A stretch of 64,000 nucleotides of DNA from Escherichia phage AV111. The translations under genes were made by a program, and so were the position numbers. The DNA lies in the sequence record OR352941.1; one strand, written 5' to 3'. Positions 2,096-8,301 of this stretch are shown piece after piece (the stretch's first letter is position 1; each line of letters begins with the position of its first letter). The notes beneath the pieces are model-generated. The model saw nothing but the letters and a program-made list of their open reading frames with translations. It searched no databases and was not told where the DNA came from.

Positions 2096-2428
2096 TCACT
2101 TATAAAGACACGGAATAGCTTTATAGTGGCATGTTACGAATTTCTGTTTAATTTCTTTAGGTTGTTTAAGTCCCAAAGCCACAAATGGATGTGGAACATT
2201 TCGAATTTGTCCAACTGGTAGTGGAGTCAAATCACCGACTTCAACAAAACCTTCAGGAACATCAGGACCTACAGAATGAACTACACATAGTTCAGGAACT
2301 TCACCTTGAACACGTTTACCAATCACAAGTCCTGATTCGGTAACTTCTTCATCACCCGCTTGAGCGGGTTCAGAAACCAGAATGACATATTCACCAACAG
2401 CACGAATTGGGAGTTGTACTTCAGACAT
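2096..2428 (-). CDS. 31: gp31 co-chaperonin (GroES-like), 110 aa
   Basis: [34 protein letters not shown]... recognised as T4 gp31. Confidence 0.9.
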
Positions 2429-2485: not shown

Positions 2486-2794
2486 TTACATAAGAAGCAA
2501 ACGTTCTACCGGAGTACCATCAACCGAAATTACTTTATCAAGGCGGAAAGAACGCCACTGGCCTAACTTGGTATCGAATGCTCGAACTGATTCACGAGGT
2601 TCATAACGAACTTCTGTTGCCGGATTGTTATTTTCATATTTGACTTCAAGTTCATCGCGGGAGGCAAACATCGTACGAACATCACCGTTAGCCTTTTCAA
2701 ATACAACACAATGAACGCCTACAGACAGAATAGTTTTAATACGTTCACGAAGAACCATAGTTTCTTGTTCAGTTAAAATCATATTATTCACCAC
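2486..2794 (-). CDS. hypothetical protein, 102 aa (31.1 position)
   Basis: ORF track; synteny. Confidence 0.55.
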   Translation of the reverse strand: MVNNMILTEQETMVLRERIKTILSVGVHCVVFEKANGDVRTMFASRDELEVKYENNNPATEVRYEPRESVRAFDTKLGQWRSFRLDKVISVDGTPVERLLLM

Positions 2795-3365
2795 AAAAGT
2801 TTCGGATTTGTTCCCAATTCAGAGAACGAAGATTATTACGAGAGTACTGAATTACTTCAATACCGGCTTGTTTTAGAATGTCTGCCCAATTTTCAGGAGA
2901 TCTGTCATATAATTCTGCGTATACAACCTTTTTAATACCTGACTGTGTAATAGCTTTAGTGCAATCAGGACATGGAGAAAGCGTCGTATACAACGTAGCA
3001 CCTTCAATAGAATTACCTTTACGAGCTGCAAACAAAATTGCATTCAGTTCCGCATGGATTTCATTATTAGCAGACCATGCACTATGAGCGGCCCGATGTT
3101 CTTTAGCCAAAACAAAATTATCTGCCCGTCCAAATGCTGTAGTGCCTTCTTTATGCCCAGCAACGATGACCGGGCTTGGTTTATTCTTCAACCAACCGTT
3201 TTCGGATGCATGTTCACAACAGTTAACACCACCGGCCGGGCTACCGTTATACCCAGTAGAAATAATGCGCCCATCTTTTTCAATGACTGCGCCAACTTTC
3301 CATGAACAACATTTTGATTCTTGAGAAATCAGATATGCAATCTGAAGGTATGTGCTAGCTTTCAT
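2784..3365 (-). CDS. cd: dCMP deaminase, 193 aa
   Basis: Zinc-binding deaminase motifs CEHASE (HAE) and SPCPDC (PCxxC); length matches T4 Cd. Confidence 0.9.
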   Translation of the reverse strand: MKASTYLQIAYLISQESKCCSWKVGAVIEKDGRIISTGYNGSPAGGVNCCEHASENGWLKNKPSPVIVAGHKEGTTAFGRADNFVLAKEHRAAHSAWSANNEIHAELNAILFAARKGNSIEGATLYTTLSPCPDCTKAITQSGIKKVVYAELYDRSPENWADILKQAGIEVIQYSRNNLRSLNWEQIRNFCGE

Positions 3366-4357
3366 TATTGAACCTTATTAATATAAGTTAACAGCTCTTT
3401 AGTTTGTTCCCAACTGATGCACGCATCGGTAACGGAAACGCCATAGGACATATTATCAGAAATTTTTTGATTTCCTTCATGTAGGAATGATTCTATCATA
3501 ATTCCTTTGACCAAATCATTAGCTGCTAAATTTTTACCAATACCAATTTGATTGCTATAATGCCCAGCAGCGTTTGCATGGCTACAGTCAACCATTACAT
3601 AATGATTCAGACCTACTGCACTTGCTTTGTTAGAAGCTTCTTGAATATCAGAAGAATGATAGTTCGGGCCGTTGGTCCCGCCACGCAATACGATATGCGT
3701 ATTCTGATTACCTTCAGCTTCAACAATGCCTACAGTACCATCGACGTCCATACCCATATACCGATGTGGCCAGGCGGCACTATACATCGCGTCTGTAGCT
3801 ACTTTAATAGAACCATTGGTTGCGTTCTTAAAGCCTACGCACATCGGTAGACCTGAAGCAATTTCACGATGTGTCTGACTTTCAGTCGTACGGGCTCCAA
3901 TAGCAACCCATGAGAAAATACCAGAAAGATACTTAATCGTGAATGGGTCTAATACTTCAGTTGCTAATGGAAGTCCCATACGTAGAAGTTTACGACACAA
4001 TGTTCGTGCAACTATAAGACCGTGGTTCATATCAAAACTTCCGTCAAGATATGGATCATTTACAAGACCTTTCCAACCTACGGTAGTTCGAGGCTTTTCA
4101 AAATAAACGCGCATCACTAACAGAACATTAGGAAGACGAGTTTGAAGTTCAGCCAGACGTTTGCCGTATTCAACAGCAGCAATAGGGTCATGAATTGAAC
4201 AAGGACCTACAACAATAAGTTTGCGTGGGTCTTCACCGTTCATAATCGAATTAACTTGTTCGCGATGAGAAGCCACTTGTGATGCGTAAGCTTCCGACAA
4301 AGGAATAATCTCAGCCAGTTCTTTTGGAGAAATAAGTTTTCTGACGACAGGTAACAT
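3365..4357 (-). CDS. 3-deoxy-D-arabino-heptulosonate-7-phosphate (DAHP) synthase, class I (AroG/F/H-like), 330 aa
   Basis: Hallmark motifs LIVVGPCSIHDP and RVYFEKPRTTVGWKGL; not part of the T4 reference gene set as I recall it. Confidence 0.8.
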   Translation of the reverse strand: MLPVVRKLISPKELAEIIPLSEAYASQVASHREQVNSIMNGEDPRKLIVVGPCSIHDPIAAVEYGKRLAELQTRLPNVLLVMRVYFEKPRTTVGWKGLVNDPYLDGSFDMNHGLIVARTLCRKLLRMGLPLATEVLDPFTIKYLSGIFSWVAIGARTTESQTHREIASGLPMCVGFKNATNGSIKVATDAMYSAAWPHRYMGMDVDGTVGIVEAEGNQNTHIVLRGGTNGPNYHSSDIQEASNKASAVGLNHYVMVDCSHANAAGHYSNQIGIGKNLAANDLVKGIMIESFLHEGNQKISDNMSYGVSVTDACISWEQTKELLTYINKVQ

Positions 4358-4477
4358 AACAATCCTTAGGAGATATAAACAGATTCTGATTCAACAATAC
4401 CTTTAACCGGATTAGACAGGCTAAGTTGGTAGTGCTCAGATTTATGACCATTCTCGATAGTAATGAGATAGCTCTCA

Positions 4478-4714
4478 TTATAGTGTTCCATATACTCGAG
4501 TTGCTTCAACAAGACCATCACTGCCTAATTTAAGATTAGTAATTTGGTCACCATCTTTAGGATTAACGATTATGAGAAAAGAACGTGGAGATTCTTGAAT
4601 AACTCGTAATGTTGCATCTTGGAAACGTTCAGACACTTTATTGATGAGTGCTTGAGCAAATTCTTTTACTTTAATCTGAAATTCGTGTACTGTAATTGGG
4701 TTTTCACTTAACAT
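4478..4714 (-). CDS. hypothetical protein, 78 aa
   Basis: ORF track; early promoter upstream. Confidence 0.5.
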   Translation of the reverse strand: MLSENPITVHEFQIKVKEFAQALINKVSERFQDATLRVIQESPRSFLIIVNPKDGDQITNLKLGSDGLVEATRVYGTL

Positions 4715-4737: not shown

Positions 4738-4770
4738 GTTATAGTATCACAACTCCACCGCGTTGTAAAC
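4738..4770 (-). promoter_or_regulatory. T4-type early promoter
   Basis: plus-strand gtaaac 4765-4770; ttatagtatcac 4739-4750. Confidence 0.45.

Positions 4771-5451: not shown

Positions 5452-5452
<1 letters not shown>
5261..5452 (-). CDS. hypothetical protein, 63 aa
   Basis: ORF track; tight packing against pseT. Confidence 0.45.
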
Positions 5453-6538
<1,086 letters not shown>

Positions 6539-7401: not shown

Positions 7402-7754
7402 TCTGAGAGCTTCCTGAGGTCTTCTGCAAAGGAATCGAAGGACCTGTTGATTTGTTTTTCGACCAATCCTGGCTTACTTGCCACCACGTTCTTCTTCTTC
7501 GAATCCTTACGGAGCTTTTCATTTTCAGCCTTAAGTTGGTCAACTAAAACACGGTTCTTATAAGTCATTTCTTCGATTGACTGATATTGAATCTTGAAGT
7601 CGTCTAATACTTTAGCATTGTTTTTAGCAGTCTCTTTAACAGAAGCCAATTCAGTATTCAGCGAATCAACTTTGTTGTTTAAGACAACTATTGTTATAGT
7701 AGAAACTAGAGCAAAAGCTGTTACTATAGCATAAATCGGATTTACTTTAAGCAT
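7398..7754 (-). CDS. putative membrane-anchored coiled-coil protein, 118 aa
   Basis: Hydrophobic N-terminal segment AIVTAFALVSTITIVVL followed by a charged helical region. Confidence 0.5.
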   Translation of the reverse strand: MLKVNPIYAIVTAFALVSTITIVVLNNKVDSLNTELASVKETAKNNAKVLDDFKIQYQSIEEMTYKNRVLVDQLKAENEKLRKDSKKKNVVASKPGLVEKQINRSFDSFAEDLRKLSE

Positions 7755-8242
7755 GTTTTAATAATCTCAATGATTTCATCTCGGGATAATCCATTGATAA
7801 GAACGGTTTTCAAACCATCACACTGGATTTTGTATGATTCAAACAATACACACAACTCTTCTGCTGTATGATATGGACTTGAAATTCCGAGGCGGTTGAA
7901 TTTGTCGGTAAGAGGGTCGCAAATAATATAGAATTTGATACCTGCGATATGTACGTTTGGTTGACTAATATTAATGAACACATTAGCGTCATATTTAGTC
8001 AAATTGTTTTGAAGAAATTCTACCATAGCATTAACTGCTTCTGGCATCGCTTCGCGTTTCTCTTCAGCGTATCGGGTTGAATACTCTTTTTGTTTTACTT
8101 TCTTTTTAAGATTTTTGGCCAGTGTAACACGTAGGTCAGTAAGATAACCAACTGGACGTCCTTTCTTAAAGACCCGGATTCCGTCAGTTGTGTCTCCAAA
8201 AGCGTTTACGACCATATCGTTAGTAATCAATTGCATATTCAT
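7742..8242 (-). CDS. alc: probable Alc (host transcription unfolding/termination protein), about 166 aa
   Basis: Position between pseT cluster and rnlA; start moved to ATG 8240-8242 (MNMQLI...) which has GAGGAGA 6 nt upstream; the longer track ORF start lies inside the promoter. Confidence 0.5.
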   Translation of the reverse strand: MNMQLITNDMVVNAFGDTTDGIRVFKKGRPVGYLTDLRVTLAKNLKKKVKQKEYSTRYAEEKREAMPEAVNAMVEFLQNNLTKYDANVFINISQPNVHIAGIKFYIICDPLTDKFNRLGISSPYHTAEELCVLFESYKIQCDGLKTVLINGLSRDEIIEIIKTCLK

Positions 8243-8270
8243 AATTTTCTCCTCGTGTTGTTGATAAACC

Positions 8271-8301
8271 CATAGTATCACCATCCTTGGTGTTTGTAAA
8301 C
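8271..8301 (-). promoter_or_regulatory. T4-type early promoter with CCAAGGATGG spacer motif
   Basis: plus-strand gtaaac 8296-8301; catagtatca 8271-8280; spacer contains ccatccttgg. Confidence 0.45.

Follow-up and report, generated by a model that had tools for sequence, protein, structure and literature searches.

Why should a T4-like coliphage encode the enzyme that opens the shikimate pathway, and keep its gene among those of nucleotide metabolism? The question arises from Escherichia phage AV111 (OR352941.1), a Mosigvirus, of which we analysed a stretch of 64,000 nucleotides (the window, to which all coordinates refer). The enzyme concerned, DAHP synthase (DAHPS), controls flux through the pathway and is the step regulated by feedback (PMC9529685). 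Its phage gene is already known: it is annotated in more than 100 T4-like genomes, forms a PHROG family and is named in print, so that finding it again, as ordinary database content, adds nothing. The literature searched gave no biochemical or genetic data on any phage DAHPS; it offered just a note on the domain, in the genome paper of phiC120, and a listing by Olsen et al. (2020 preprint) as a Mosigvirus AMG of unknown function. What is new here is a conserved, rebuilt feedback pocket beside an intact catalytic core, in one old T4-like clade; we found neither the remodelled regulatory site, nor the structure of the clade, nor the indel in phage RB69 described in Mosigvirus records or in the papers on the gene.

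Gene identity, catalytic core and neighbourhood

The gene occupies 3365..4357 on the minus strand and encodes 330 residues from an ATG start, the longest reading possible after the preceding in-frame stop. The first-pass annotation had called its product a class I DAHP synthase from AroG/AroF/AroH motifs, which stand at residues 46–58 (KLIVVGPCSIHDP) and 83–98 (RVYFEKPRTTVGWKGL), and curated HMMs uphold that call, as do the mapped residues and a confidently modelled structure. The protein belongs to Pfam PF00793 (E = 7e-75; 251.8 bits, cut-off 25.5), exceeds the curated thresholds of NCBIfam TIGR00034 aroFGH (427.4 bits, cut-off 173.2) and NF009395 (455.7 bits, cut-off 343), and matches the PHROG profile phrog_5045 over its full length (E = 4.9e-182; residues 1–330 on profile positions 8–337 of 341). 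It is of the I-alpha (AroF/G/H) type and AroF-like: the top solved-structure match by sequence was E. coli AroF (6agm, E = 1e-104), and identity is 51% to E. coli AroF over the full length and about 52% to enterobacterial AroF. Scores against the isozyme-specific NCBIfam models fell below their cut-offs for AroH (NF009396, 385 bits against 463) and for the AroG equivalog (NF006723, 364.9 against 568), and no AroF-specific equivalog was among the matches. KDO8P synthase (KdsA) shares the PF00793 superfamily and PEP-aldol chemistry with the phage protein; we rejected this identity, as the KPRT motif is of the DAHPS type and all NCBIfam matches at E ≤ 0.001 were DAHPS models.

The catalytic machinery is complete. 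The metal ligands C53, H260, E289 and D311 correspond to AroG Cys61, His268, Glu302 and Asp326, and PEP as well as erythrose-4-phosphate (E4P) are contacted by R83, K88, P89, R90, T91, E134, R156, K177 and R225; a check in AroG numbering (R92, K97, R99, T100, R165, K186, R234 and the KPRT(S) motif) found every residue present. Loss of metal- or PEP-binding residues, which the first-pass annotation had named as what would tell against its call, was looked for and seen nowhere: all 13 mapped positions are kept in the window protein and are invariant in 24/24 proteins of the phage clade, whose divergence reaches down to 57% identity (P = 4e-7, given how often columns are invariant in the background). 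The AF2 model (pLDDT 89.8, pTM 0.90) is a (β/α)8 barrel with I-alpha decorations, namely an N-terminal extension, though 8–9 residues shorter, and a β6a/6b hairpin (198–203 and 209–214). Foldseek matched it, at TM 0.94 and an rmsd of about 1.9 Å, with AroG of E. coli (1kfl, 8e0u) and with DAH7PS of N. meningitidis; the TM of 0.94 is that to 1kfl, 8e0u and 5dcb. Barrel, hairpin, Cys-His-Glu-Asp metal site and KPRT/PEP/E4P residues are all shared with the Tyr-sensitive E. coli AroF (PDB 6AGM/6AGL). The phage protein is thus predicted, with high confidence, to be an active, metal-dependent enzyme converting PEP and E4P to DAHP and Pi.

The gene sits directly upstream of cd (2784..3365, minus strand; dCMP deaminase, 193 residues), where it had first been placed: its stop TAA (3367–3365) shares one base with the cd start ATG (3365–3363) in a TAATG overlap (caaTAATGaaa; 3363..3367, minus strand), and translational coupling from DAHPS to cd is likely. 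A Shine-Dalgarno sequence, AAGGA, can be read at 4363..4367 (minus strand), 5 nt upstream of the start codon (ATG, 4357). Beyond it lie a 41-residue ORF (4366..4491, minus strand; annotated JS09_0231 in JS09), which overlaps the 3' end of cd.2, and the cd.2 homologue itself (4478..4714, minus strand; 78 residues, DUF7320, phrog_1504), transcribed in the same direction; pseT is at 5452..6351. The T4 interval between cd and pseT holds small ORFs only (cd.1 to cd.5), as the first-pass annotation had stated. The gap between cd.3 and cd.2 contains a promoter-like site (TTTACA-17-TACTAT with TG; 4741..4769, minus strand), whose hexamers and TG are identical in RB69, the spacer differing by 2 nt; the T4 record annotates early promoter Pe133295 in the same gap. 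Consensus match and positional homology point to a putative and likely early promoter of cd.2, the 41-residue ORF, DAHPS and cd, and DAHPS is probably expressed early together with cd. The early block that holds it also includes nrdA, nrdB, td and frd. A tRNA scan of the whole 64-kb window found none.

The rebuilt regulatory pocket

The E. coli isozymes are feedback-regulated, AroF by Tyr, AroG by Phe and AroH by Trp, and in AroG and AroF the first 8–9 residues extend into the inhibitor pocket of the adjacent subunit. In the phage enzyme these residues are missing (those equivalent to AroF 2–10 are absent, the first nine residues with the N8 equivalent included), and the allosteric positions I141, K142, G146, P171, S193 and Y200 are remodelled. 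Five of the replacements fall at inhibitor-contact or feedback-resistance positions (P150I, Q151K, D155G, S180P and F209Y in AroG numbering), so that the pocket residues of the feedback-regulated isozymes are replaced by I141, K142, G146, P171 and Y200; counted on AroF, the changes are P151I, Q152K, D156G, S181P, A203S and F210Y. The phage enzyme is also shorter than AroF (330 against 356 residues): its C-terminal tail is reduced and, close to the C-terminus, it has two short deletions inside the chain. The N-terminal allosteric region was where the first-pass annotation had proposed to look for feedback-site residues; with that segment gone and other residues at five positions of the inhibitor site, its idea of a bypass of host feedback gains sequence support.

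The affected positions are well characterized. Q151/Q152 and S180/S181 contact the inhibitor main chain, D155 makes a stabilising salt bridge, AroG P150L and D146N are fully feedback-resistant, and S180F, F209A/S and L175D are resistant variants (PMC9529685); AroF becomes Tyr-insensitive through replacement of P148 or Q152 or deletion of I11 (PMC5791370). Within the N-terminal segment, AroG D6, D7 and I10 and AroF N8 and I11 have a role in the inhibitor site (PMC9529685, PMC5791370). Single mutations at positions 150, 151, 180, 209 or in the N-terminal segment suffice in engineered or selected enzymes (AroG P150L, D146N, S180F, F209A, L175D; AroF P148L, Q152I, delta-I11, N8K), and the phage enzyme is altered at all four positions and in that segment. 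Its changes differ from theirs in being natural, multiple, to other residues (Ile, Lys, Pro, Tyr, Gly) and fixed clade-wide, and its resistance is a prediction. Since the N-terminal segment is missing and Gln151, Ser180, Pro150, Phe209 and Asp155 are replaced, shut-off by Phe, Tyr or Trp is predicted to be absent, and on balance we consider the enzyme probably insensitive to aromatic amino acids.

The remodelling is a property of the clade. The five sites read I/K/G/P/Y in 23–24 of the 24 phage proteins against P/Q/D/S/F in 87–93 of 95 bacterial ones, and 8–12 residues precede the conserved Pro in phage proteins compared with 16–53 in bacterial ones. Thirteen columns discriminate the clade; five of them fall within 14 predefined allosteric positions (P = 7e-5) and nine within AroG 144–160, 180, 209 and 223. 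Canonical regulatory residues are kept in about 95 bacterial relatives and in the homologues of giant viruses. The latter, class I enzymes from Nucleocytoviricota MAGs, are likewise virus-encoded with an intact active site; unlike the phage enzymes they form a separate lineage outside the T4-like clade (40–48% identity) and have P-Q-D-S-F regulatory residues and N-termini of normal length.

Could the site be re-tuned rather than disabled, leaving an active enzyme controlled by Tyr through a modified AroF-like pocket, or by another effector such as chorismate, prephenate or a nucleotide? Tyr or another ligand could still bind, because the pocket is strongly conserved among phages (8/14 positions invariant, 12/14 at ≥96%) and D137 (AroG D146), P138 (AroF P148, AroG 147), L170 (AroG L179), G202 (AroG 211) and the modelled hairpin are retained, the Pro at AroG position 147 being of the AroF type and the Gly at 211 a mark of Tyr-type enzymes. 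Among phages the remodelled positions are kept as strictly as bacteria keep the canonical ones, and drift would be expected of a decaying site; the positive charge gained by the Gln-to-Lys change could pair with a carboxylate or phosphate; and two sister lineages have nucleotide-metabolism neighbours, cd here and thymidylate kinase in L023. However, both residues that hold the main chain of Phe or Tyr are lost (Gln to Lys, Ser to Pro), P150 has given way to another residue, as it has in the fully resistant P150L, and the pocket is without its capping N-terminal segment. The conservation could instead come from structural demands at the dimer interface or from an active conformation that is locked, and no result of the analysis indicated a candidate ligand. 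We judge continued allosteric control unlikely, if worth weighing. Distinctly unlikely, too, is conversion of the pocket to a different conserved site (I-K-G-P-Y plus the clipped N-terminus), which would make the T4-like phage enzymes a naturally evolved, clade-wide variant of I-alpha regulation and would either lock the enzyme on or let a phage-relevant metabolite control shikimate entry instead of Phe, Tyr and Trp.

Possible benefits to the phage

The reading that we favour, with modest confidence in it as a whole, is an early-expressed, active DAHPS, probably free of aromatic feedback, that would sustain aromatic and chorismate-derived supply. An ancestor of several T4-like genera would have acquired the gene once, long ago, and kept it between pseT and cd; in this phage its transcription most likely starts early, at the promoter that precedes cd.2, and its translation comes just ahead of cd. 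With the catalytic machinery untouched and the regulatory site rebuilt, Phe, Tyr or Trp would not shut the enzyme off. Once the phage has blocked host transcription, its DAHPS may provide the only step that controls shikimate-pathway flux, and the remaining host downstream enzymes could then maintain the supply of aromatic amino acids and chorismate derivatives during phage production. Aromatic amino-acid supply may well be the selected benefit, though we stop short of calling it probable: a feedback-insensitive enzyme is useful only if the phage wants flux beyond homeostasis, and such a need is hypothetical. Some of the giant-virus enzymes are 650–680-residue fusions with PF00800 (prephenate dehydratase), a link between viral DAHPS genes and the synthesis of Phe.

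These fusions also weigh against a chorismate-derived cofactor, chiefly folate via p-aminobenzoate, as the selected benefit in place of amino acids. Folates are recycled cofactors and require little flux compared with aromatic amino acids, and none of the genes seen beside DAHPS was a pab or fol biosynthesis gene. Phage thymidylate synthase, dihydrofolate reductase and cytosine-modifying enzymes do need folate, and because phage enzymes of the nucleotide-metabolism region depend on it, a folate benefit would explain the place of the gene there, in the early block with cd, nrdA, nrdB, td and frd, as it would the copy beside thymidylate kinase in the sister lineage; a shared early region is, however, weak evidence of common function in T4-like genomes. 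Chorismate is a folate precursor (PMC9529685), and a feedback-insensitive entry enzyme would fit a non-amino-acid product better, since amino-acid pools would otherwise throttle the pathway. Taken together, we regard a folate benefit as improbable.

A rewiring of sugar phosphates, in which DAHPS drains E4P or PEP and thereby redirects the pentose-phosphate pathway, or uses arabinose-5-phosphate in some connection with the arabinosylated cytosine DNA of Mosigvirus and its relatives, seems very improbable. We considered it since Mosigvirus carries arabinosylated DNA and the DAHPS reaction resembles the chemistry of arabinose-5-phosphate and KDO8P, both synthases being in one Pfam family, PF00793; the published arabinosylation pathway diverts ribulose-5-phosphate to arabinose-5-phosphate (PMC13326640). 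The distribution of the arabinose-5-phosphate isomerase (RB69 gp55) was compared with that of DAHPS. Both occur in Mosigvirus, Winklervirus, Bragavirus, EcS1 and SdyM_006 phages, but RB69 has the isomerase and arabinosylated DNA yet no DAHPS, and Acinetobacter phages have 57 isomerase records compared with 4 DAHPS hits, of which the two listed are short contigs from a metagenome-derived record. Conversely, 25 Klebsiella phage records have DAHPS, at least 22 of them without the isomerase; Klebsiella phages can have at most 3 isomerase records since Klebsiella is not one of the ten genera richest in the isomerase. Nothing is lost from the E4P-type KPRT motif or from the E4P/PEP residues, the NCBIfam search gave DAHPS models and no KdsA, and the arabinosylation papers do not mention DAHPS. 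With co-occurrence partial and RB69 lacking the gene, we rejected a strict link to the arabinosyl-cytosine DNA module (RB69 gp51–55 type); distribution largely refutes the sugar-phosphate reading.

Distribution and origin of the gene

The first-pass annotation had suggested a survey of T4-like genomes; ours found a DAHPS homologue in 212 deposited phage records, many annotated aroF or DAHP synthase. At least 95% identity was seen in 139 records and 57–77% in further genera, the T4-like copies always lying between pseT and cd. The phrog_5045 genes of Mosigvirus (JS09, HX01, O157 typing phages 3/6/13, moskry, F2 and others) are the same gene, 98–99.7% identical in amino acids and located between cd.2 and cd. 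Neighbour-joining trees with bootstrap (numpy implementation) gathered the T4-like copies into one monophyletic clade (200/200), with internal divergence as deep as the distance to bacteria. The composition of the gene is phage-like (GC3 0.287 against 0.278 for cd), and together with the monophyletic clade and a synteny conserved in four genera this identifies a long-maintained phage gene. Recent capture from a host was rejected on the same grounds and on the identity of only about 52% to enterobacterial AroF, with no closer bacterial relative among 8000 scored homologues. Near-identical Mosigvirus copies gave dN/dS values of 0.24–1.2, uninformative because each pair has too few differences (6–9), and deep conservation served as evidence in their place.

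RB69 is without DAHPS through a precise indel of 1113 bp, and the 41-residue ORF (4366..4491) falls inside the missing segment. In the alignment the segment is bounded by an imperfect direct repeat of the cd start, with its left copy, TAATGAGAGCTATCTCAT, at 4463..4480 and its right copy, TAATGAAAGCTAGCACAT, the true cd start, at 3350..3367 (both minus strand). RB69 and T4 grow without the gene, which is therefore dispensable, at least in the laboratory. That it is a passenger without function, playing no part in infection and stemming from recent capture of a host gene or from contamination of the assembly, is hardly credible, since its absence from T4 and RB69, the flanking short repeat typical of indel-prone sites and the dN/dS of close copies, not clearly below 1, are outweighed by a conservation pattern that refutes it: many records in a constant position, a deep monophyletic clade with invariant catalytic residues, a composition like that of the neighbouring phage genes and the distance to host AroF.

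Outside the clade, a related copy in a 262-kb phage contig has three of the changes in common (P180, S202, Y209), and the distant enzyme of Aeromonas phage HJ05 also has Pro at the Ser180 position, which, on the reading of a converted pocket, would suggest that phages may repeatedly uncouple the DAHPS step from host feedback. If the favoured reading is true, production strains for aromatic compounds would have in this enzyme a natural, stable, feedback-resistant DAHP synthase. For the phages themselves, it would be a clear case of a lytic virus seizing the single point of flux control in a host biosynthetic pathway and removing the host brake, and it would raise a so far unaddressed question: why a T4-like phage wants unregulated shikimate flux.

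The DAHP synthase gene and its neighborhood

The 330-aa DAHP synthase (DAHPS) is encoded on the minus strand at 3365..4357, with an ATG start that gives the longest reading from the preceding in-frame stop and a Shine-Dalgarno AAGGA 5 nt upstream. Its TAA overlaps by one base (caaTAATGaaa) the ATG of the next gene, cd (dCMP deaminase; 2784..3365, PF00383, phrog_174). The first-pass annotation, which had described such an ORF meeting the cd start and quoted two motifs (KLIVVGPCSIHDP and RVYFEKPRTTVGWKGL), was borne out in every detail, and the T4 interval between cd and pseT indeed holds only small ORFs, cd.1 to cd.5, as it had stated. Upstream of DAHPS lie homologues of cd.2 and cd.3, two small ORFs (phrog_3609; phrog_2360, at the position annotated as cd.4 in phage JS09) and, beyond these, pseT (polynucleotide kinase, 5452..6351). 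DAHPS is probably expressed early along with cd, since a promoter-like site (TTTACA-17-TACTAT with TG), whose hexamers and TG are identical in RB69, occupies the cd.3/cd.2 gap, the same gap to which early promoter Pe133295 is assigned in the T4 record.

Between cd.2 and DAHPS is a 41-aa ORF (MEHYNESYLITIENGHKSEHYQLSLSNPVKGIVESESVYIS; 4366..4491, minus strand) that shares 14 nt with the 3' end of cd.2. RB69 lacks the segment containing this ORF, which JS09 lists as hypothetical protein JS09_0231. On the other side of cd, also on the minus strand, are homologues of gp31.1 (2486..2794; match to the WYL_2 Sm-like SH3 barrel family, PF10902), overlapping the cd end by 11 nt, and of the co-chaperonin gp31 (2096..2428; Cpn10 match). 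T4 gene 31.2, located between 31.1 and cd in T4, has no counterpart in the window.

The protein matched Pfam PF00793 (E=7e-75) and passed the curated NCBIfam cut-offs for TIGR00034 (aroFGH; 427 bits, cut-off 173) and NF009395 (456 bits, cut-off 343), falling under those of the AroG- and AroH-specific models. KDO8P synthase was rejected because only DAHPS models were matched in NCBIfam. The best solved relative by sequence was E. coli AroF (6agm, E=1e-104), and identity was 51% to AroF, 47% to AroG and 44% to AroH. An AlphaFold2 model built from 41 sequences (pLDDT 89.8, pTM 0.90) was confident, being weak solely in the KPRTT substrate loop; it retained the β6a/6b hairpin typical of I-alpha enzymes and superimposed in Foldseek on E. 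coli AroG and N. meningitidis DAH7PS (TM 0.94, rmsd about 1.9 Å). Loss of metal- or PEP-binding residues had been named as evidence against the assignment; the assignment was not refuted, since all four metal ligands (C53, H260, E289, and D311) and all nine PEP/E4P residues, including KPRT, are conserved. The gene is real and correctly identified.

Nor is it new: the gene has been annotated before. Many Mosigvirus genomes, among them JS09 and those of O157 typing phages 3, 6, and 13, match the region with 98% DNA identity. Homologues were found by tblastn in 212 phage records (139 at ≥95% identity), many labelled aroF, DAHP synthase or phospho-2-dehydro-3-deoxyheptonate aldolase, and the PHROGs family (phrog_5045, E=5e-182) is categorized as "moron, auxiliary metabolic gene and host takeover". 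Olsen et al. list the gene among Mosigvirus auxiliary metabolic genes of unknown function, and the phiC120 genome paper mentions a DAHPS domain. A literature search for functional work on any phage DAHPS found none.

Distribution and history

RB69, the type Mosigvirus, lacks DAHPS, and its cd directly follows cd.2. Alignment of the window with the RB69 genome revealed a precise 1113-bp difference containing the 41-aa ORF and DAHPS, bounded by an imperfect 18-nt direct repeat of the cd start (TAATGA[G/A]AGCTA...; left copy TAATGAGAGCTATCTCAT, 4480-4463; right copy TAATGAAAGCTAGCACAT, 3367-3350; both minus strand). This repeat bounds the cassette exactly where RB69 keeps a single copy, which suggests gain or loss by short-repeat recombination. 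An out-of-frame ORF of 55 aa starts at the left copy with MRAIS, mimicking the cd start MKAST. The RB69 cd (L005 6743..7252) is annotated as 510 nt (169 aa) versus 582 nt (193 aa) in the window and T4, with an unannotated 76-nt gap before gene 31.1; the shorter form may stem from truncation at the 3' end, from a frameshift or from differing annotation.

Judged by record counts at ≥95% identity (139 for DAHPS, about 151 for the RB69-type arabinose-5-P isomerase), the majority of Mosigvirus-like genomes carry DAHPS and RB69 belongs to a minority. Copies with 57–77% identity occur beyond Mosigvirus in T4-like phages of Enterobacter, Edwardsiella, Erwinia, Serratia, Klebsiella, Proteus, Providencia, and Shigella. 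In Klebsiella phage P545, Serratia phage X20, and Proteus phage phiP4-3, DAHPS again occupies the pseT–cd interval, oriented as in the window, and is separated from cd by one or two small ORFs, one of them a cd.1 homologue. A neighbor-joining (NJ) tree of 123 sequences placed the 25 phage proteins in one clade (bootstrap 200/200) that is about as deep internally (maximum Kimura distance 0.73) as it is distant from its closest bacterial sequences (0.75). No donor bacterial group stands out. GC and GC3 of DAHPS match those of neighboring cd. These patterns are most simply explained by one ancient acquisition followed by vertical inheritance at a single locus, with occasional losses.

A link between DAHPS and the arabinosylated cytosine of Mosigvirus DNA is suggested by the chemistry and by the presence of both systems in several genera, but the distributions of DAHPS and the isomerase overlap only partly: the isomerase is present in DAHPS-less RB69 and in 57 Acinetobacter phage records, at least 22 Klebsiella phage records hold DAHPS without it, and the papers on the arabinosylation pathway do not involve DAHPS. 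Recent host capture, contamination, and a pseudoenzyme are excluded by the conservation pattern.

A remodelled regulatory site

The first-pass annotation had proposed checking the N-terminal allosteric region, where the phage protein proved to differ. Because it starts 8–9 residues after the AroG/AroF start, with residue 2 aligning with AroF I11, the segment bearing AroG D6/D7 and AroF N8 is missing. In the inhibitor pocket, the canonical residues at AroG positions 150 (P), 151 (Q), 155 (D), 180 (S), 202 (A), and 209 (F) are replaced by I141, K142, G146, P171, S193, and Y200, respectively; several AroF-type residues and the hairpin are retained. Q151/Q152 and S180/S181, which all E. coli isozymes conserve, bind the Phe/Tyr main chain, and D155/D156 forms a stabilizing salt bridge; P150L and D146N confer complete feedback resistance, and S180F, F209A/S, L175D, and L179A are resistant variants (Jayaraman et al., PMC9529685). 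Replacement of P148 or Q152, or deletion of I11, renders AroF Tyr-insensitive (PMC5791370).

Across 24 phage-clade proteins, positions 150/151/155/180/209 read I (23/24), K (23/24), G (23/24), P (24/24), and Y (24/24); the corresponding tallies for 95 bacterial relatives are P (87), Q (93), D (92), S (92), and F (92). The conserved Pro is preceded by 8–12 residues in the phage proteins, compared with 16–53 in bacteria. Thirteen alignment columns distinguish the phage clade from bacteria, of which five fall among 14 allosteric positions fixed before the comparison (P=7e-5) and nine within AroG 144–160, 180, 209, and 223. The signature recurs in all ten T4-like IMG/VR contigs (L010-L019), a set that includes copies of deposited isolate genomes. 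About sixty other viral homologues, giant-virus ones included, lack it. On these alignments, the remodelled pocket is not peculiar to one sequence.

A 262-kb phage-like contig (L023/L024; IMG/VR 3300028829_003504) encodes a 349-aa DAHPS (L023 5971..7020) sister to the T4-like clade (NJ bootstrap 79/100), with pocket residues N151, H155, P180, S202, and Y209, the last three common to that clade. It is flanked by genes for a NUDIX protein and a eukaryotic-type topoisomerase IB, for a thymidylate kinase whose gene overlaps the DAHPS 3' end, and for a Dam methylase and a 1003-aa protein carrying a Tad6 anti-Thoeris domain. The non-T4-like Aeromonas phage HJ05 (79-kb genome, every gene annotated as hypothetical) has a divergent 387-aa DAHPS (L091 4899..6062, 39% identity) with a long N-terminal extension and Pro at the inhibitor-binding Ser180 position. 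About 60 IMG/VR giant-virus contigs carry class I DAHPS. In giant-virus MAG contigs L076, L051, L056, L060, L069, L070, L073, L077, L078, L080, L085, L087, and L089, ORFs of 630–680 aa join such a DAHPS, bearing a KPRS motif and canonical feedback-site residues, to a C-terminal extension; in L076, the only one of the 13 long ORFs scanned, the extension is a prephenate dehydratase domain (PF00800). Two bacterial or metagenomic proteins (P0109 and P0110, 360–374 aa) have a different unusual pocket (QPMAG...P...H, with Pro at the Ser180 position) and fell adjacent to the phage clade in a first NJ tree, possibly through long-branch attraction.

Implications for infection

From these sequence comparisons, we infer that the enzyme is active as a DAHP synthase and that its canonical feedback by aromatic amino acids has been disabled or re-tuned. 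The rebuilt pocket is tightly conserved in the phage clade (12/14 positions at ≥96%) and retains several residues of AroF type as well as the hairpin, so it may have kept a ligand or may owe its conservation to structure. DAHPS controls flux through the shikimate pathway and is its feedback-regulated step (PMC9529685). T4-like phages shut off host transcription, and an alc homologue (7742..8284; Alc in JS09) lies about 3 kb upstream of DAHPS. By supplying one brake-free enzyme, the phage could sustain this pathway with whatever downstream enzymes the host still has. The benefit might be a supply of aromatic amino acids for a burst in phage protein synthesis, or of a chorismate-derived cofactor such as folate; T4 and RB69 do without the gene. 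For this already annotated gene, the analysis adds a specific, testable prediction of deregulated activity.
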